Part shown: one piece after another, positions 8,466-46,514 of the stretch | Position numbering within the stretch: the stretch's first letter is position 1 | Layout of the letters: every line of letters starts with the position of its first letter | Origin: Candidatus Woesebacteria bacterium | GTDB lineage: Bacteria > Patescibacteriota > Microgenomatia > UBA8517 | Length of the DNA stretch: 64,000 bases | NCBI GenBank assembly: GCA_003484955.1 | Contig: DMZH01000002.1 | Span: 211,496-275,495 of the forward strand | Direction: 5' to 3' | The notes under the pieces: generated by a model | The model's database searches: none | What the model was told of the DNA's origin: nothing | The model's input: only the letters and a program-made list of their open reading frames with translations | Position numbers and translations under genes: made by a program

Positions 8466-8542
8466 GGTGGTTGTAGCTCAGTTGGTTAGAGCGTCCCCCT
8501 GTGGAGGGGAAGGTCGGGAGTTCAAATCTCCTCAACCACCCA
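8466..8542 (+). tRNA. tRNA-His (anticodon GTG) with encoded G-1
   Basis: Hand-folded cloverleaf: G-1 plus acceptor GTGGTTG/CAACCAC, anticodon loop CTGTGGA, T-arm GGGAG/TTCAAAT/CTCCT, discriminator C. Confidence 0.85.
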
Positions 8543-10093
8543 AGAGGAGGTAGGGGTAGTAGATAATTGCCTAATTAGCTCGAAAGATTGGCTCAATTTA
8601 GTGGTTCTAAATTTGTTATTTTCAAAAATCACATTTTCGGGGTAAATAGAACCAGTAAGCAACTTCCTTTGATTCAAGGTTCCCTCTTTCCACGCCTTAT
8701 CTAGATTCCACAAGAAGTTATTCATAAATTTAGTAACGATTTTAATATCTATTTTTTGCAGGTGAGCTTCGTTATTGTTTGATTTAGCTACAATTATCCT
8801 ATCTTCGATTAAGTCCATCTGCTCTCTAAATATCTCGTCTGAATATACACCTGATAGATTCTTTGATACCAGTCTTTTCCTTACCGTATAGAGAGCTTCT
8901 AGGTCATCTTGAATTTTCTTTTGGTTACTTATAAGGTGTGAATATCTGCTTTCCCACTTCTCGGCCACCATTTCACTAAATAGTGGTGTAAAGTCTTTGC
9001 TTGGTTGAATTTCTCTCAGATATTCTAAAAATAGATTTTCAAAATAATCTTTCTGATAAGACTTACAGAAGTGTTTTCCAATACAATAATAATACGGGTA
9101 GTGTCCACCTCTGCCTCTAGAGAATGAGCCTGTCATTTTTAGTCCACAAATTCCACAAATAACATGTCCTCTCAACGGAAAGTTTTCATTTAATTTTGTG
9201 TATTTAATTCCCCCTGTAAACGATCTCTTATCGATAATCGCTTGCACCTTATAGAAGGTTTCTTCACTAATCATTGGCTGATGATTTCCGATCCTATCAA
9301 CATTAAATTTTTGACTTACTACATAGCCACAATAAAACTTATCTCGAAACAGTCTTTGAGCATGTTGGCTTCTAACGGGGTTTTTCCGATTTCCAATTTT
9401 TACAAGTATGCCTAACTTATTCATATAAGTTGCCATTGTTTCTAGAGAATATGCTCCTGTAGACATTTCATCCCACGACTTTTTAACAAGATCAAATTGT
9501 TCTGGGTCTGGCTCGATTATCTGTTTTTCGTTTCGTTCAATGTTAATATAACCCAAAGCTGCCTTACCATTAGCCCATCCCGATTCCAACCTTTTTCTCA
9601 TACCATCACGGCTTCTTAATCCTTTTGTGGCGTTATCCAATTTCGCACTGGCAGCCAGAAGTGTTTCAAGAAATTCTCCTGTAGGACTGTCCTCTGTGGG
9701 TTCGGTTACAGATATTATTCTTATGCCGTAATCAGCCAACCGTTTTTTGATAGCTAGATAGTCAAAGGTTTCCCTACTAATTCTGTCTATCTTGTATATA
9801 AACACAGCGGAAATTTCGTTTTTGTTTTTGCGGGAATCCTCAAGAAGTAGGATTAGCTCTGGCCTGTTGATATTTTTAGCACTTACACCTTCTTCTCTGT
9901 AGACTTTTTCTACCACATAACCTCTATGATCAGCTTCTTTTCTGCAATACTCCTCCTGATTATCAAGACTGTAGTTGGAAACCTGTTCTTCTGAGCTTAC
10001 TCGAATATAAATATAGGCTTTTTTAGTCACTTCCATATTATGTTTCTTTATCTCCTGCTTTGTCAAAGGTGTTTTGGTTATATTTAGTCTCAA
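8522..10093 (-). CDS. Large serine recombinase (resolvase catalytic domain + recombinase domain + zinc ribbon + coiled coil)
   Basis: N-terminal resolvase motif (YIYIRVSSEEQ, IDRISRETFD). Zn ribbon (CGICGLKMTG...YYYC). 523 aa. The 3' end (TGA at 8522-8524) overlaps the T-loop and 3' acceptor of tRNA-His by about 20 nt. Confidence 0.9.
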   Translation of the reverse strand: MRLNITKTPLTKQEIKKHNMEVTKKAYIYIRVSSEEQVSNYSLDNQEEYCRKEADHRGYVVEKVYREEGVSAKNINRPELILLLEDSRKNKNEISAVFIYKIDRISRETFDYLAIKKRLADYGIRIISVTEPTEDSPTGEFLETLLAASAKLDNATKGLRSRDGMRKRLESGWANGKAALGYINIERNEKQIIEPDPEQFDLVKKSWDEMSTGAYSLETMATYMNKLGILVKIGNRKNPVRSQHAQRLFRDKFYCGYVVSQKFNVDRIGNHQPMISEETFYKVQAIIDKRSFTGGIKYTKLNENFPLRGHVICGICGLKMTGSFSRGRGGHYPYYYCIGKHFCKSYQKDYFENLFLEYLREIQPSKDFTPLFSEMVAEKWESRYSHLISNQKKIQDDLEALYTVRKRLVSKNLSGVYSDEIFREQMDLIEDRIIVAKSNNNEAHLQKIDIKIVTKFMNNFLWNLDKAWKEGTLNQRKLLTGSIYPENVIFENNKFRTTKLSQSFELIRQLSTTPTSSWVVEEI

Positions 10094-10207
10094 ATAATTG
10101 AAAACCTACTTCGATAATTTGATTAAAGGATGTAATAATTTCTAATAGTCTCTGGTCGGACAACGAATCGGCACATTCACCTAAGATTTTCCTCGCTTTT
10201 TCTATGG

Positions 10208-19273: not shown

Positions 19274-19277
19274 ATTG

Positions 19278-19361
19278 TGCCGAGGGCGGGACTCGGACCC
19301 GCATGAGTTATGCACTCGAGGGCTCTTAAGGCCCTTGCGTATACCATTTCGCCACCTCGGC
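19278..19361 (-). tRNA. tRNA-Leu (TAA), type II with long variable arm
   Basis: Acceptor GCCGAGG/CCTCGGC, anticodon loop CTTAAGA, variable arm about 15 nt. Confidence 0.85.
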
Positions 19362-20992: not shown

Positions 20993-21149
20993 CTTGGAAC
21001 TACTTATACATAAAATGAGGAGGGAGTGTCAAGAACAAAAATGGTGCGCCTGGGAAGAATATGAAATTGTGAAATTTCATATATCTTACTTCGCTTTGTA
21101 ACTCAAATAAATTTTCGTTAGTCGCGAAGAGCGTTATCGAACTCCCTTG

Positions 21150-21223
21150 TGCGTCCAGCAAGAATCGAACTTGCAACCTTCCGTTCCGAAGACGGACGCT
21201 CTATCCAATTGAGCTATGGACGC
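21150..21223 (-). tRNA. tRNA-Arg (TCG)
   Basis: Acceptor GCGTCCA/TGGACGC, anticodon loop CTTCGGA. Confidence 0.85.
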
Positions 21224-29458: not shown

Positions 29459-29468
29459 AACTCCAAAG

Positions 29469-29540
29469 TGCCCTTAGAAAGAATCGAACTTTCATTTCAC
29501 CCTTAGAAGGGGCGCGCTCTATCCGTTGAGCTATAAGGGC
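29469..29540 (-). tRNA. tRNA-Arg (TCT)
   Basis: Acceptor GCCCTTA/TAAGGGC, anticodon loop CTTCTAA. Confidence 0.8.
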
Positions 29541-29541
29541 T

Positions 29542-29616
29542 TGGAGCGGCGGACGAGAATTGGACTCGCTACTTTCTCCTTGGCAAGGAGACGTTCTACC
29601 GATGAACTACCGCCGC
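29542..29616 (-). tRNA. tRNA-Gly (GCC), CCA encoded
   Basis: Acceptor GCGGCGG/CCGCCGC, anticodon loop TTGCCAA, 3' TCCA. Confidence 0.85.
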
Positions 29617-29930
29617 AAGTATTTTCTACAGGCTTAATTCTACAACAAACGGGTTTAAAACTCTAGCTGGAACAACTTACTTTCTTCCGGATACAATGAT
29701 GCAGTGTTAATGGAAATTCTTTTTTAAAGAAGAGCTTTTAGAAGTGCCTCACGAATATTTTTGCCGGCAAACCAGCTTTTAAGGAAAACTATCGCATGTT
29801 TATTTTTGTTCAACTCCTGAAGATAATACTTGTCCACATGTCCGCCTTTTTTAAACAAGATGTTCGCAAGTTCTTTTATTGAAAATTTGGTATAGATAGT
29901 TTAATTATACCATCTTCGTAGAACTATATG

Positions 29931-30003
29931 TGCTGAGACCAGGAGTCGAACCTGGATAGCTTGTTCTTCAGACAAGTGCCTTGACCACCTTGGCTATCTC
30001 AGC
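29931..30003 (-). tRNA. tRNA-Phe (GAA)
   Basis: Acceptor GCTGAGA/TCTCAGC, anticodon loop CTGAAGA (G at position 37), T-arm CCAGG/TTCGACT/CCTGG. Confidence 0.8.
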
Positions 30004-30075
30004 ATGAACAAAGTGAGTGCGGAGAAAACGTTCTGCACGAAGTGCGGGTTGTTATCTCGGCACACTCTACTTCAG

Positions 30076-30149
30076 TGGTCGCTGAGGGATTCGAACCCCC
30101 GACCTTCTCGATGTAAACGAGACGCTCTAACCAACTGAGCCAAGCGACC
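30076..30149 (-). tRNA. tRNA-Val (TAC)
   Basis: Acceptor GGTCGCT/AGCGACC, anticodon loop TTTACAT. Confidence 0.85.
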
Positions 30150-30154
30150 TTGTG

Positions 30155-30235
30155 TGCACTCGGAGAGACTCGAACTCTCACGCCTTTCGGCATAGCTCCT
30201 TAGGCTACCGCGTATACCAATTCCGCCACGAGTGC
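30155..30235 (-). tRNA. tRNA-Leu with apparent anticodon AAG (A34), type II
   Basis: Acceptor GCACTCG/CGAGTGC, anticodon stem GTAGC/GCTAT with loop CTAAGGA, long variable arm, discriminator A. Confidence 0.7.
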
Positions 30236-30250
30236 TTGCCAACTCCCGAG

Positions 30251-30334
30251 TGCCAAGGGCGGGACTTGAACCCGCACGCTCTTTCGAGCACACGCTCCTG
30301 AAGCGTGCCTGTCTACCAATTTCAGCACCTCGGC
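30251..30334 (-). tRNA. tRNA-Leu (CAG), type II
   Basis: Acceptor GCCGAGG/CCTTGGC (one G-U pair), anticodon stem CACGC/GCGTG with loop TTCAGGA, long variable arm. Confidence 0.85.
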
Positions 30335-30387
30335 AAACTTAGCTCGCCAATTATACCAGGATTCAAGATCGCTTAGCAATTCATTGT

Positions 30388-31122
30388 GTGCGTGAATTGA
30401 ACGCTGGTATATCGTTTTTCTTGAAACGTCGTATCAAGATCTCCACAAACTTGACAGATTGTCTACACTTGTGGCATCCTGATTTGGTGGAAAGGTCTAT
30501 ATTAAATAGGGAAGAGAGCTTCGGATTCTGGAAAAATATCATTTTTGTAGCCGTATTTTTTGTCATCACGCCTGTTACGATTGGAGTCAGCCTATTCTCA
30601 CTTTTTTCGTTAAAGAAAAATGAGGTTGTTGAGAAAAAATTTAACACCACAAATTTAATCGTTTCACCCAAATCCGGAGTTAGTGTCTACGCGTCACTTC
30701 CCGGAAACGTTCCTACTGTTTCGTCCTCAATTGAGTACGCCGATGCCAGACCCCAAATTATCAAAAATTATCTTGAATCATACAATTCTCCACTTACTCC
30801 CTACGCAAATCTGATCGTAGAAACAGCCGACGAATATTCCATAGATTTCCGTTTAATAACAGCCATATCCCAACAAGAAAGCAATCTCTGTAAAATCATT
30901 CCACCCGGATCTTACAACTGTTGGGGTTGGGGAATAACCAGTGTGGGTTCGTTGGGTTTTGACTCGTTTGCCGACGGAATAGAAACTGTTTCAAAAGGTC
31001 TCCGCCAAAACTATTTGAACAAAGGTTATTCAACAGTTGATGAAATTATGTCCAAATATACACCCCAAAGTAATGGCTCCTGGGCGTATGGCGTAAATTC
31101 TTTCATGGACCAAATGGAGTAA
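30388..31122 (+). CDS. Membrane-anchored SLT-domain (lytic transglycosylase-like) protein
   Basis: N-terminal TM helices. C-terminal domain with ITAISQQESN (catalytic Glu-Ser) and YNCWGWGI. Paralogous to 31304..31840. Confidence 0.55.
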   Translation: MRELNAGISFFLKRRIKISTNLTDCLHLWHPDLVERSILNREESFGFWKNIIFVAVFFVITPVTIGVSLFSLFSLKKNEVVEKKFNTTNLIVSPKSGVSVYASLPGNVPTVSSSIEYADARPQIIKNYLESYNSPLTPYANLIVETADEYSIDFRLITAISQQESNLCKIIPPGSYNCWGWGITSVGSLGFDSFADGIETVSKGLRQNYLNKGYSTVDEIMSKYTPQSNGSWAYGVNSFMDQME

Positions 31123-31847: not shown

Positions 31848-31931
31848 GCCGGGGTGGTGAAACGGTATACACGCTAGGTTTAGGACCTAGTGCCCCTTAA
31901 AGGCGTGCAGGTTCAATTCCTGTCCCCGGCA
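31848..31931 (+). tRNA. tRNA-Leu (TAG), type II
   Basis: Acceptor GCCGGGG/CCCCGGC, anticodon stem CTAGG/CCTAG with loop TTTAGGA, long variable arm. Confidence 0.85.
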
Positions 31932-31961
31932 CATAAATAATTAATTGTGCTAATATAAGCT

Positions 31962-34806: not shown

Positions 34807-35709
34807 ATGTCAGATCAAAGATCCCCTTCAGGGGACAAAGTTTCATCTGTTGTTGCCAGAGAAAGCAATGGAAACATTCAAATTACTTTTACCATCCCTT
34901 ATTCGGAAATTAAGGCCACAAAAGAGGAGGTAATTAAAGAGTTTGCAAAAGATACCGAAATTCCCGGATTCAGAAAAGGCATGGCGCCTCTCCCTAAAGT
35001 TGCCGCCAAAATTCCGGAAAGCACCCTCATTGAGCATTCATTAAGCCATATTTTACCTAAAGCACTTGCCGATGCCGTTACCGACAACAAACTTCAAATT
35101 GCAATTTATCCCAAGTTTGAACTTATAAGCGCTAAGGAAGATGAACCTTGGCAAATCAGAGGAACTACTTGTGAACTCCCGCAAATCGAACTTGGAGATT
35201 ACAAAAAAGTTGTCACAGGAGCATCACGTGCATCAAGTCTTTGGACACCCGACAAAGGAAAGCCGGAAGAGAAAAAGGAGCCTTCCCACGAACAAAAAGA
35301 ACAGATCGTTATCAAAGCTCTGCTTGATAGCGTTAAAGTAGACGTCCCGCAAATTTTGATTGAAGAGGAAGCCGATAGCCGCCTATCGAATCTTTTATCC
35401 CGTCTTGAAAAACTTGGTCTGGCTCTTGAAAACTATCTTTCATCAATAGGCAAAAAGGCGGAGGACTTAAGGGCGGACTATGCCAAACAGGCAAAAGAGG
35501 CCATTACCCTCGACCTGACTTTAACTAAAATTTCCGAGGCGGAAAATCTTAAAATCGATCAAAAAGAGGTTGATGCGGCTTTTAATATGTCTCAAATCGA
35601 CAAGAAAAAGGGGGAAAGTAATCCCGAGGAAACCGAAAACAGAAAAAGACTTTTGGAATCAATTTTGAGGCGTCGTGCTGCACTGGATTTATTGATTAAC
35701 TTGAGTTAA
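34807..35709 (+). CDS. tig: Trigger factor, short form lacking the central PPIase domain
   Basis: N-terminal ribosome-binding domain with a GFRKG signature (EIPGFRKGMAPL). The C-terminal arm domain is present. 300 aa versus about 430 normally. Confidence 0.7.
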   Translation: MSDQRSPSGDKVSSVVARESNGNIQITFTIPYSEIKATKEEVIKEFAKDTEIPGFRKGMAPLPKVAAKIPESTLIEHSLSHILPKALADAVTDNKLQIAIYPKFELISAKEDEPWQIRGTTCELPQIELGDYKKVVTGASRASSLWTPDKGKPEEKKEPSHEQKEQIVIKALLDSVKVDVPQILIEEEADSRLSNLLSRLEKLGLALENYLSSIGKKAEDLRADYAKQAKEAITLDLTLTKISEAENLKIDQKEVDAAFNMSQIDKKKGESNPEETENRKRLLESILRRRAALDLLINLS

Positions 35710-40482: not shown

Positions 40483-42216
40483 ATGGAGTTGGAACATTTG
40501 AGACATTCCTGTTCACATCTAATGGCAGCGGCCATCGGGCAATTGTGGCCCAAGGCAAAACCCACTTTAGGCCCGGCAATTGAAAATGGATTTTATTACG
40601 ATTTTGACTTCGGAGAAGCTAAAATTGCAGAATCTGACTTTGAGAAAATCGAGGAAAAAATGCATGAAATTGTTAAGGGTTGGAGGGAATTTGAAAAGAT
40701 TGAGATAACCAAGGAACAGGCTTTGAAAGATTTTAAGGGTAATGAGTACAAAGAAGAACTAATTAACGATCTTGCTGATGGGCAAATTACATACTACAAA
40801 TCGGGGAGTTTTTCCGATCTTTGCAAGGGCGGGCATGTTGAAAACCCTTCTGAAGATTTGAAATTTTTCAAACTTCTTTCCGTGGCCGGTGCCTACTGGA
40901 GAGGGAACGAGAAAAATAAAATGTTAACCCGTATTTACGGTACTATTTTCCCTACGCAAAAAGAGTTGGATGATTTTATTGCAATGAAAGAAGAGGCTAA
41001 AAAAAGAGATCACAGAAAACTTGGGAAGGAAATGGATCTATTTACTTTTTCCGAATTGGTCGGATCCGGTCTTCCCCTTTATACACCGAAGGGAGCTCTT
41101 ATGAGACGCCTTGTTAATGAGTATGTTGAGTCTGTACAATCATTGCAAGGATACTCACAAGTTTGGACTCCTCAAATTGCAAAGGCTGATCTTTTTAAAA
41201 CTTCGGGGCACTATGACAAATATAAGGATTCTATGTTTAGAGTCTTTTCAAATTATTCGGATGAAGAGTTTTATCTTAAGCCTATGAACTGTCCTCAGCA
41301 CACACAAATCTATGCTTCAAAACCAAGAAGCTACAAGGATTTGCCAATAAGACTAACCGACTTTGCCATGTTATATCGAGACGAAAAACCCGGGGAGCTT
41401 TCGGGTCTTGCAAGAGTAAGGGCATTTTCTCAGGACGACTGCCATATTTTCTGCAGGGAAGACCAGGTTGATGAAGAAGTTGACAGAGCACTTGCAATGA
41501 CTAAGGAGATTATGAAAACTTTTGGTCTTTCTTATAAATACAGGCTTTCAACCAGGGACCAGGAACACCCCGAAAAGTATATAGGAGATCCCAAAATTTG
41601 GGATAAAACTGAAAAGTGGGCAGAGGAAATTATGAAACGCAATAATATTGAATATTTTGACGGTCCAGGAGAAGCGGCTTTTTATGCTCCAAAGATGGAT
41701 TTGATTGCTAAGGATTCACTGGGACGGGAATGGCAACTTTCAACGGTTCAAATTGATTACTTCTTGCCAGAGAGATTTAATTTAACTTACATTGATTCTG
41801 ACGGAAAAGAAAAACGACCAGTTATGATTCATAGAGCGATAGTTGGTTCTCCTGAAAGATTTTTAATGGTTCTTATTGAACACTTTGGAGGAAATTTTCC
41901 AACTTGGTTGACACCTGTTCAAGCCAAAGTTTTGCCAATTACCGAAAATCATTTGGAATACGCAAATAAAGTCGCTGAGAAGCTGAAAAAGGCCGGAATT
42001 AGGGCGGAAATTGATGATAGAAATGAAAGACTTCAGGCGAAAATCCGCGATGCTCAGTTATCAAAAGTTTCTTACATGTTCATTGTTGGCGACCGCGAAG
42101 CTGAAGCTGGCAAGATTGCCGTAAGAAAAAGAAACGGGGAAGATTTGGGATCAAAGGATTTGGAAGAATTCATTAAAGCCTTGAGAAAAGAAATCGACGA
42201 AAAGATTGTTAATTAA
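40483..42216 (+). CDS. thrS: Threonyl-tRNA synthetase lacking the N-terminal TGS/N1 domain
   Basis: Class II aaRS motifs (FRDE...GLARVRAFSQDDCHIF), editing-domain HxxxH and an anticodon-binding domain. 577 aa. Confidence 0.9.
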   Translation: MELEHLRHSCSHLMAAAIGQLWPKAKPTLGPAIENGFYYDFDFGEAKIAESDFEKIEEKMHEIVKGWREFEKIEITKEQALKDFKGNEYKEELINDLADGQITYYKSGSFSDLCKGGHVENPSEDLKFFKLLSVAGAYWRGNEKNKMLTRIYGTIFPTQKELDDFIAMKEEAKKRDHRKLGKEMDLFTFSELVGSGLPLYTPKGALMRRLVNEYVESVQSLQGYSQVWTPQIAKADLFKTSGHYDKYKDSMFRVFSNYSDEEFYLKPMNCPQHTQIYASKPRSYKDLPIRLTDFAMLYRDEKPGELSGLARVRAFSQDDCHIFCREDQVDEEVDRALAMTKEIMKTFGLSYKYRLSTRDQEHPEKYIGDPKIWDKTEKWAEEIMKRNNIEYFDGPGEAAFYAPKMDLIAKDSLGREWQLSTVQIDYFLPERFNLTYIDSDGKEKRPVMIHRAIVGSPERFLMVLIEHFGGNFPTWLTPVQAKVLPITENHLEYANKVAEKLKKAGIRAEIDDRNERLQAKIRDAQLSKVSYMFIVGDREAEAGKIAVRKRNGEDLGSKDLEEFIKALRKEIDEKIVN

Positions 42217-44543: not shown

Positions 44544-46514
44544 ATGTTAATTCCACTTTCCTGGCTTAAAGAATATGTAGAAATAAAACTGCCGTTGAAG
44601 GATCTTATGTGGAAAATGACCGAAGCGGGTCTGACCTGCGAAGTAACCAAAAAAGTTGGTGATGAGGTGGTATTGGATGTTGAAGTCACTGCCAATCGGC
44701 CAGACTGGATGAGTATACTCGGGGTTGCCAGGGAAGTGGCTGCTATACAGGGAATTAAAATTAAAGAACCTAAAATTAAAGAGATTCCCGCAGCAACGGC
44801 TAACTTCCCGATTGATTTGATTCCTAATTTTGATTTATTTGAACGCTGGAGTGCTATTGTAATAAAGGATGTAACAATCAAGCCTTCACCAAAATGGCTC
44901 CAGGAAAGAATTACTTCGATGGGTCATTCTCCTATCAATAACATCATCGATATCACCAACTACGTTATGTACGAGTTGGGTATTCCAATGCACGCTTTCG
45001 ATTATGACGAAATAAGTGGACAAATTATGACACTCGAAAAGGCCAGTGGGGGGGAGAATTTTACTTCTGTTGACGGAGAGAGCTACAAACTCCCGGAGGG
45101 AGCAATGATAATTAAAGATGCCGAAAGAATAATCGATTTAGCCGGAATCAAAGGCGGACAAAATTCGGGAATTAAGAATTCAACCAAAAATGTTCTTTTG
45201 CATGTAACTATCGATAATCCTGTTCTTGTCAGAAGAGCTTCTATCTCAATGGGTCTTAGGAGTGATGCTTCCGCAATTTATGAAAGGGGCCCGGACAAAG
45301 GCGGCACTGTTAATAGTCTAAAAAGAGCCGCGGGTCTGATTCTTGAACTTGCCGGTGGGGAGATTGCCTCAAAGGTTATTGATTTCAAGAAAGAAAACTT
45401 TGAACCAAAAACTATTAATTTAACATTCGGTAAACTTAAAAGAATACTGGGAATTGAAATTCCGGAAAGTGAAATTATCAGAATTCTGTCATCCCTTAGT
45501 CTATACCCTGAAAAAATTAAAGACGGAATTACCTGTACCGTTCCAACTTACCGGGGAGATATAAAAATCGAGGAAGATCTGACGGAAGAAGTTGCCAGAC
45601 TTTACGGATACAATAAATTCCCGACAACTCTTCCGGTCGGTCAAGTCGCAGAAGAAAAAATTCCGTACTTTTTTGATGATAGTCTGATACTTAAAATTAA
45701 AGACATCCTGGTTTCTTGCGGTTACTCGGAAGCAAAAAACTTATCACTCGTTTCAAAAGCTTTGGTTGATAAGTTTGAGACCGATCCTAAGGATTATTTC
45801 AAACTCATTAATCCCGTAAGTTTAGAATACGAGTATTTGAGGGTCTCGCTTATTCCCAGTTTAGTCGCCAATATTAAGTTAAATCCCGTAGACGTTTTAA
45901 AGCTTTTTGAGATAGACAAAGTTTATTTAAAGACGTTAAAAGGAGCAAACGAAAAATACAGAGTTGCAGGTATTTCTACAGGGAAAGATTTCCGGGATTT
46001 CAAAACTGTCATAGACATAATTCTTTCGAAATTAAATATCGAGAACTGTTCCATTGAATTTGAAGTTGATAAAAAGTATTTACATCAATCCGTTGCAGGA
46101 GTAATTAAAAGCGGTTCTCACATCATCGGCGAATTTGGAGAAATAAGTCCTGTGGTTCTATCTGCAATGGAAATTTCCGGTAAAGTTTATTGCTTTGAGA
46201 TGGATATGGAAACTCTGGAAAAACTTTCCTATACAAAACTGTTTTCATCGATTCCGCTGAATCCTCCACAAATAGAAGATATTACACTGGTTCTTCCTCC
46301 AAAAACGAGAGTTGGGGAAGTAATGAAAGCGATTAAAAATTCAGAATTAAAGATTACAAATTTAGAACTGAGAGATATTTATAAAGATTCCTATACTTTT
46401 AGGGTTTGGTATCAGGACAATAGTAAGAATTTAACTGACGCTGATGTCAAAAGTATAAGAGACAGGATTCTGACTTTATTAAAATCCAAGTTTGGAATCA
46501 GTCTTAAGGACTAG
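44544..46514 (+). CDS. pheT: Phenylalanyl-tRNA synthetase beta subunit (short, 656 aa)
   Basis: B3/B4 and B5 domain similarity. Gene position immediately after pheS. Confidence 0.85.
   Translation: MLIPLSWLKEYVEIKLPLKDLMWKMTEAGLTCEVTKKVGDEVVLDVEVTANRPDWMSILGVAREVAAIQGIKIKEPKIKEIPAATANFPIDLIPNFDLFERWSAIVIKDVTIKPSPKWLQERITSMGHSPINNIIDITNYVMYELGIPMHAFDYDEISGQIMTLEKASGGENFTSVDGESYKLPEGAMIIKDAERIIDLAGIKGGQNSGIKNSTKNVLLHVTIDNPVLVRRASISMGLRSDASAIYERGPDKGGTVNSLKRAAGLILELAGGEIASKVIDFKKENFEPKTINLTFGKLKRILGIEIPESEIIRILSSLSLYPEKIKDGITCTVPTYRGDIKIEEDLTEEVARLYGYNKFPTTLPVGQVAEEKIPYFFDDSLILKIKDILVSCGYSEAKNLSLVSKALVDKFETDPKDYFKLINPVSLEYEYLRVSLIPSLVANIKLNPVDVLKLFEIDKVYLKTLKGANEKYRVAGISTGKDFRDFKTVIDIILSKLNIENCSIEFEVDKKYLHQSVAGVIKSGSHIIGEFGEISPVVLSAMEISGKVYCFEMDMETLEKLSYTKLFSSIPLNPPQIEDITLVLPPKTRVGEVMKAIKNSELKITNLELRDIYKDSYTFRVWYQDNSKNLTDADVKSIRDRILTLLKSKFGISLKD

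Follow-up and report, generated by a model that had tools for sequence, protein, structure and literature searches.

The window, meaning the whole 64,000-nucleotide stretch that was analysed, belongs to Candidatus Woesebacteria (CPR, Microgenomates), a groundwater organism. A 750,195-bp contig recovered from sediment of the Rifle aquifer, like several assemblies from groundwater, encodes proteins identical to those of the window, and these identical proteins carry Candidatus Woesebacteria names (ACD_13; GW2011_GWC2_40_30 and its relatives). The window has a GC content of ~40% and harbors housekeeping genes throughout, including those for UvrA, PyrG, TypA, ThrRS, PheST, PBP1A and RecG; with these genes and no phage match, a phage origin was rejected. 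ARAGORN identified 15 tRNA genes, among them Leu-TAA, Leu-CAG, Leu-TAG, Arg-TCG and Arg-TCT (Table 1), and agreed with the preliminary description that the window encodes these three leucine isoacceptors and no Leu-GAG. The gene studied here, tRNA-Leu(AAG), is the second member of a co-oriented tRNA cluster. A predicted sigma-70-like promoter (TTGCTA, an 18-nt spacer and (TG)TATAAT, an extended -10 element, with 10 of 12 consensus matches) ends 16 nt upstream of the first tRNA and probably drives the cluster. On the other side of the promoter lies a divergently transcribed protein gene conserved in Woesebacteria, referred to below as the anchor gene. Its product has no Pfam match, has an N-terminal hydrophobic segment followed by the invariant motifs YNCWGWG and SNGSWAxGV, and is always encoded divergently from the tRNA cluster. 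The U34 isoacceptor of the leucine CUN four-fold box, tRNA-Leu(UAG), sits 1.6 kb from tRNA-Leu(AAG); it could cover CUA and CUG, and with an unmodified U34 the whole CUN box.

Table 1. Positions of the features discussed (numbering of the window)
Feature	Position	Strand	Remarks
tRNA-His	8467-8541	+	
Large serine recombinase ORF	8522-10093	-	523 aa
tRNA-Leu(TAA)	19277-19361	-	ARAGORN; reads UUA/UUG
tRNA-Arg(TCG)	21149-21223	-	ARAGORN, Rfam; only CGN-reading Arg tRNA seen; kept in relatives
Remainder of tRNA cluster	29468-30003	-	order kept in relatives
tRNA-Arg(TCT)	29468-29540	-	in cluster remainder
tRNA-Gly(GCC)	29542-29616	-	in cluster remainder
tRNA-Phe(GAA)	29930-30003	-	in cluster remainder
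tRNA-Val(TAC)	30075-30149	-	4 nt downstream of Leu(AAG); one side of the slot
tRNA-Leu(AAG)	30154-30235	-	ARAGORN; Rfam RF00005 match 30155-30235 (-)
tRNA-Leu(CAG)	30250-30334	-	ARAGORN, Rfam; first gene of cluster, directly upstream of Leu(AAG); bounds the slot on that side
Sigma-70-like promoter (predicted)	30350-30379	-	
Anchor gene	30388-31122	+	211-244 aa; 1082 homologues
tRNA-Leu(TAG)	31848-31932	+	ARAGORN; near the slot in nearly all relatives
Trigger factor	34807-35709	+	300 aa
ThrRS	40483-42216	+	577 aa
PheT	44544-46514	+	656 aa

The tRNA-Leu(AAG) gene was called on the minus strand, the preliminary description having given none, and it matched Rfam RF00005 over the full model length (1-71); the bit score was 53.2 (gathering score 29), and the E-value over the whole window was 1.3e-8. 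Structural alignment to the covariance model gave the anticodon stem GUAGC/GCUAU and the 7-nt loop C32-U33-A34-A35-G36-G37-A38, in which A34, A35 and G36 correspond to positions 30201, 30200 and 30199 (CTT on the plus strand); the loop thus has an NAG anticodon, U33 and a purine at position 37. The fold, register and G37 that had been proposed by hand were therefore upheld by both programs, and a different anticodon register, which had been named as one result that would overturn the proposal, is excluded since two structure-aware predictors place AAG at positions 34-36. The variable arm is 12 nt long (GCCGAAAGGCGU), the discriminator base is A73 and CCA is not encoded. As A73 is the main identity element for LeuRS in bacteria, established with the E. 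coli enzyme, the gene encodes a type-II tRNA of the leucine type on the basis of its 12-nt variable arm and its discriminator. An artefact could take the form of a misread or misassembled base 34, a tRNA copy in decay or an incorrect register, and all that speaks for it is that A34 is rare in GtRNAdb-type surveys; given that ARAGORN and Rfam agree, that the identical sequence, A34 included, was recovered in four assemblies made independently from different samples (L001-L004), which excludes sequencing or assembly error, and that A34 is kept in many species with covarying stems, this explanation is refuted and retains practically no weight.

To place the gene among its relatives we used the anchor gene for synteny, as it is independent of the tRNA sequence, and a scan of its alignment against metagenomes retrieved 80 loci. 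At these loci the slot between tRNA-Val(TAC) and tRNA-Leu(CAG) was occupied by Leu(AAG) in 23 cases and by Leu(GAG) in 25, and never by both. Three further contig look-ups in divergent relatives revealed the same neighbourhood and three more cases of Leu(GAG). Relatives keep the order Leu-CAG / Leu-(A|G)AG / Val-TAC, and the same cluster with Leu(AAG) was present in a second species (765-kb contigs) and in the complete 1.08-Mb Woesebacteria genome CP066686.1; the genomes with A34 include, besides the latter, ERZ936476 k127_325966 (750 kb, the organism of the window), Ga0265292_1000010 (765 kb) and Ga0208957_1000001 (826 kb), and those with G34 include Ga0172379_10000004 (593 kb), ERZ27249449 k141_927413 (604 kb) and CAZRJH010000001.1. 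The slot tRNAs comprise 17 distinct A34 and 21 distinct G34 sequences. Only 4 of 82 nt, namely positions 20, 32, 34 and 43, separate the window tRNA from L157, the G34 orthologue closest to it, and because of this close identity it represents the G34-to-A allele of the one tRNA-Leu gene with which Woesebacteria read CUY codons. Derivation by mutation from Leu(TAG) or Leu(CAG) was rejected, as those tRNAs have different acceptor stems.

The gene might instead be a redundant copy, the actual work being done by an ordinary tRNA-Leu(GAG) at another place in the genome, a situation that the preliminary description had named as one that would refute it. In favor of this, the inspected sequence amounts to ~84 kb of the genome and the tRNA genes of the organism are scattered. 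Within the window and its flanks (~8 kb to the left and ~10 kb to the right), which together give these ~84 kb from a genome no smaller than 750 kb, no Leu(GAG), no tadA and, beside the Arg(TCG) gene, no Arg(NCG) was found. Several observations argue against redundancy: Leu(AAG) fills the exact slot of the Leu(GAG) of relatives with no locus holding both, the window tRNA retains 78 of 82 nt of its GAG orthologue, Leu(GAG) is missing in every known AAG lineage, and the 17 distinct A34 sequences show perfect stems and compensatory changes that would not be expected of a dispensable gene. We consider a redundant copy improbable.

A34 was found on at least three tRNA backbones, distinguished by the acceptor sequences GCACYCG, GCGCGGG and GCGGnnn, each of which also occurs with G34, and a neighbour-joining tree of the anchor protein implied at least 12 changes between the A34 and G34 states, a rough number as the tree is noisy and rests on one short protein. 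On the strength of the shared backbones and the changes along the tree, A34 and G34 have interchanged repeatedly among close relatives.

The backbones of the slot tRNAs themselves differ widely among close relatives (L142, L143, L163 and L164 compared with window positions 30154-30334), and the acceptor GCCGAGG of some G34 slot tRNAs is also that of the window Leu(CAG) and Leu(TAA). These observations hint that, besides the point switches at position 34, tRNA genes were replaced or anticodons shifted between leucine isoacceptors.

We next consider the constraints on the A34 forms, for which pair statistics were taken from a structure-based parse of the tRNAs, as the MAFFT alignment had misplaced a gap in the anticodon stem. 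In the 17 A34 sequences all 289 of 289 cells of the acceptor, anticodon and T stems held standard pairs, compensatory double changes occurred at 12 of the 17 stem positions, and A73 was present in the window tRNA and all 38 orthologues. The full pairing, the compensatory changes and the invariant A73 together argue that the A34 forms are under strong purifying selection for a working tRNA. The anticodon loop was found to differ between the alleles. A38 was present in 17 of 17 A34 forms against 12 of 21 G34 forms (Fisher p=0.002), and C32 occurred only with A34 (8/17 against 0/21; p=0.0005), both tests ignoring kinship among the sequences. As the GCGG-type backbones carry U38 in their G34 forms and A38 in their A34 forms, the change at position 38 has probably recurred. 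A recognition requirement of a deaminase would explain the A38/C32 pattern, and tuning of the 32-38 pair to a weaker A34:U codon pair would also explain it. The loop was also compared with YUAMGRA, the consensus for a relaxed TadA; the window loop CUAAGGA fits it exactly, as do 16 of the 17 distinct A34 orthologues. The exception, the tRNA-Leu(AAG) of L146 (Ga0187849_1001238), has C33 (loop CCAAGGA) where U33 is near-universal, and otherwise differs from the window tRNA by 3 nt; its C33 may reflect either an error in sequencing or a genuine peculiarity.

The distribution of the two alleles was then set against base composition in 19 A34 and 21 G34 species-loci. Mean GC was 0.378 at the A34 loci and 0.414 at the G34 loci (p=0.0004), codons ending in C were fewer with A34, and when the three backbone classes were taken separately A34 again went with lower GC in every one (p=0.006, 0.036 and 0.022). 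In the window CUU is the most frequent leucine codon (32%), and CUC accounts for 9%. After correction for the background C3/U3 ratio, no extra depletion of CUC was detected in the A34 species (log-odds -0.66 with A34 and -0.81 with G34; p=0.24). Since A34 tracks lower GC and CUC is not further depleted, the anticodon follows base composition, with CUC decoded without visible loss. Codon usage was set aside as a means of telling inosine from unmodified adenosine at position 34, as the CUC result suits both I34 and four-way reading by Leu(UAG).

Replacement of Leu(GAG) by Leu(AAG) is a known kind of change in bacteria, and its CPR host is new as far as the searched literature shows; our search found no report linking Leu(AAG) to Patescibacteria. 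All Streptococcus, Lactobacillus and Lactococcus encode tRNA-Leu(AAG) and lack Leu(GAG) (bioRxiv 10.64898/2026.05.15.725136; PMC13249217). Inosine at position 34 has been demonstrated on the Leu(AAG) of O. oeni, S. pyogenes and S. mutans, all of which are fully I34 (PMC13249217; PMC11472039). The S. pyogenes TadA edits Leu(AAG) and the E. coli TadA does not, the relaxed consensus being the YUAMGRA motif given above (PMC11472039). In surveys based on GtRNAdb almost all Leu(AAG) genes fall in Bacilli (PMC13249217). The preliminary description had taken A34 tRNA-Leu to be confined to a few bacteria such as Oenococcus, a statement now outdated by its fixation in the three genera above and by its occurrence in at least five further lineages in our scan of a genome collection. 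The scan used the D-arm followed by CTNAGGA, with N at position 34, a permissive pattern since the D-arm is widespread, and it returned at least 120 loci. Among the 121 pattern matches listed, which did not include the genome of the window, 94 had T at position 34, 20 had A, 6 had C and one had G, and ARAGORN assigned all 20 of the listed A34 matches to tRNA-Leu(aag). Among the matches listed, those with A34 came from Prochlorococcus (L022, L034, L038, L113), Verrucomicrobia (Verrucomicrobiaceae/Akkermansia; L043, L053, L057, L069, L081, L102, L123, L133), Ignavibacteria-like genomes (L074, L087), Rickettsiales-like or proteobacterial MAGs (L078, L085, L106), a Mycoplasmataceae MAG (L046) and Clostridiales MAGs (L026, L099). 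Leu(AAG) is therefore spread more widely than the surveys suggest, being found in at least five lineages outside Bacilli. The Leu(AAG) of Prochlorococcus, Verrucomicrobia, Ignavibacteria and the other MAGs share with the window tRNA the D-arm (GGCGGAAUUGGUAUACGCG) and the loop CUAAGGA and are 68-80% identical to it, but come from unrelated phyla and differ from it in the acceptor and anticodon stems; presumably they represent independent G34-to-A events in hosts with standard TadA and Arg(ACG). The 57 CPR loci among the matches listed held six Leu(GAG) and no Leu(AAG), and the D-arm of these CPR Leu(GAG) genes was exactly that of the window tRNA.

The closest parallel is provided by the Lactobacillales (including Oenococcus and Leuconostoc). 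As at the sampled Woesebacteria loci, A34 there replaces Leu(GAG) without ever co-occurring with it, the loop fits YUAMGRA with G37, Leu(UAG) is present, and the hosts have AT-rich genomes that make heavy use of CUU. In the Lactobacillales, however, A34 is fixed across whole families, whereas in Woesebacteria, an unrelated CPR lineage, it toggles with G34 through at least three switches. The Lactobacillales also possess Arg(ACG), a TadA of relaxed specificity and demonstrated I34, while in Woesebacteria only Arg(TCG) was seen and no TadA was present in the sequence covered. A second parallel is with tRNAs whose A34 is left unmodified, namely Thr(AGU) of Mycoplasma and Thr(AGU) and Ser(AGA) of O. 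oeni (PMC11066159). These resemble the Woesebacteria gene in serving a four-fold box, in the small or reduced genome of the host and in the presence of a U34 isoacceptor, and in them A34 is tolerated as mispairing within the box keeps the amino acid. They are Thr and Ser tRNAs, whereas the window gene is a leucine tRNA whose unmodified A34 is our inference. We know of no documented case of an unmodified bacterial Leu(AAG).

As the modification state of A34 depends on whether the lineage has an inosine system at all, we looked at its arginine tRNAs and deaminases. CPR appear to lack tRNA-Arg(ACG) and to rely on Arg(GCG) together with Arg(UCG) and Arg(CCG) (Shulgina and Eddy, PMC8629427), and other lineages with Arg(GCG) have lost inosine. 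Bacteria without A34 tRNAs have been reported to be without TadA, and the expansion of inosine substrates is proposed to begin with unmodified A34 tRNAs (PMC8072771). The inosine-free bacteria (Thermotogae, Spirochaetes, epsilon-proteobacteria, some Mollicutes and CPR), which use Arg(GCG) and Arg(UCG), are like the window in having Arg(UCG), with no Arg(ACG) seen; they are described as being without any A34 tRNA, whereas Woesebacteria has one for leucine. In the ~84 kb of the organism and at all the loci of its relatives only Arg(TCG) and Arg(TCT) were seen. Arg(ACG), Arg(GCG) and Arg(CCG) were absent from the sampled Woesebacteria regions, and Arg(TCG) was conserved (also in L135, L171, L172, L177, L182, L209 and L219). 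This Arg(TCG)-only pattern is consistent with the inosine-free decoding of CGN codons reported for CPR. A six-frame regular-expression search of the window for the CDA-fold motif [HC]AE...PCxxC gave no match, and neither this motif nor a tblastn match to the E. coli TadA turned up in the window, its flanks and ~490 kb of Woesebacteria loci. Overall, no CDA-fold deaminase was found in the window, the flanks and ~1.5 Mb of collected loci, of which the share of the organism itself is ~84 kb of at least 750 kb. A protein search with the E. coli TadA returned enterobacterial TadAs for all of its best 120 matches, and our literature search found no survey of TadA or tRNA modification in CPR/Patescibacteria.

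Two explanations of how the tRNA works carry most of the weight. We lean towards the first, to which we give about an even chance, namely that Woesebacteria have no A34-to-inosine system and that Leu(AAG) works with unmodified A34, the G34/A34 flips following GC content and the CUU:CUC ratio. The lineage probably has no such system, since CPR are reported to be without Arg(ACG) and organisms without A34 tRNAs to be without TadA. Unmodified A34 would read the dominant codon CUU by Watson-Crick pairing, while CUC, about 7-9% of leucine codons, would be served by weak A:C pairing, by four-way wobble of tRNA-Leu(UAG), or by both; an unmodified AAG anticodon with G37 is known to read CUU and CUC in a ratio of ~87:13 (PMC11066159). 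The slot would then hold an auxiliary booster of CUY decoding, with G34 performing best on CUC and A34 best on CUU, and the booster would flip as mutational drift in GC shifts the ratio of the two codons. Unmodified A34 is favored because frequent toggling between G and A is simpler if no dedicated enzyme is needed each time. Against it stand the full I34 of every tested bacterial Leu(AAG), the exact YUAMGRA loop, the invariant A38, the restriction of C32 to A34 forms and the undiminished use of CUC in A34 species, which fits I34 at least as well. The presumed lack of tadA and Arg(ACG) in this particular organism leans, moreover, on one general sentence about CPR (PMC8629427) and on the ~84 kb read of at least 750 kb.

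The second explanation, which we regard as a serious possibility though a less probable one, is that a TadA-family enzyme encoded elsewhere in the genome deaminates A34, so that tRNA-Leu(IAG) reads CUU and CUC about equally and CUA in addition. Its corollary is that Leu(AAG) would be the only tRNA substrate of the deaminase or that Woesebacteria exceptionally retain Arg(ACG). The same observations that count against unmodified A34 speak for it, and the invariant A38 and enriched C32 make the loop resemble CUACGAA of Arg(ACG); a survey of GtRNAdb found a TadA homologue in 88% of the bacteria that have non-ACG A34 tRNAs. Deamination is opposed by the failure to find a deaminase in the window, the flanks and the collected loci, by the reported lack of Arg(ACG) in CPR and of TadA in inosine-free lineages, and by the sighting of Arg(TCG) alone for CGN. 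Further, an E. coli-type TadA fails on Leu(AAG), so that a pre-adapted enzyme would be needed for at least three independent switches, and such an enzyme would have to persist across Woesebacteria, including G34 species in which it has no tRNA substrate. The earlier proposal that an A34 tRNA-Leu implies inosine formation and an expanded specificity of TadA is unproven here and possibly wrong.

The near-absence of A at the wobble position in bacteria and archaea is a long-standing question. Current surveys lean on GtRNAdb, in which CPR are hardly sampled, and confine non-Arg A34 essentially to Bacilli, always with TadA. What is unusual in Woesebacteria is the recurrent switching between G34 and A34 at one orthologous locus, its coupling to GC content and a background reported to be without an inosine system. 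The dozens of matched natural pairs of G34 and A34 genomes can be used to address the need for A34 deamination, the cost of A34 for CUC decoding and the tracking of codon usage by the anticodon. In the absence of TadA, this tRNA would become the first conserved Leu(AAG) with an unmodified A34; if TadA is present, it would be maintained for a non-Arg substrate, and a TadA-like enzyme kept solely for tRNA-Leu would be equally unexpected. Should the unmodified reading be true, the locus would constitute a natural replicated experiment in which unmodified A34 is tolerated, even favored, in a four-fold box, and it would display the proposed first step of inosine expansion, in which A34 tRNAs precede the action of the deaminase, in a lineage without TadA. 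Either outcome informs models of the expansion of eukaryotic-style inosine decoding.

Elsewhere in the window, the 3' end of tRNA-His is overlapped by 20 nt by the ORF of a large serine recombinase, which has Resolvase, Recombinase and Zn_ribbon Pfam matches (in L012). The recombinase lies at the edge of a low-GC stretch (~8.5-17 kb; positions 8467-17000) with a GC of 0.33-0.37 against ~0.41 in the flanks, and this setting points to a possible integrated mobile element. Downstream, no att-like repeat matching 12 nt or more of tRNA-His was found, and an insertion polymorphism between assemblies was rejected, as the DNA is identical and the gene is merely uncalled in some records. Among the translation-related proteins, ThrRS begins at the tRNA_SAD domain, PheT matches its family model only from position ~158 and the trigger factor is likewise short (lengths in Table 1), which fits the general shortening of proteins described for CPR.
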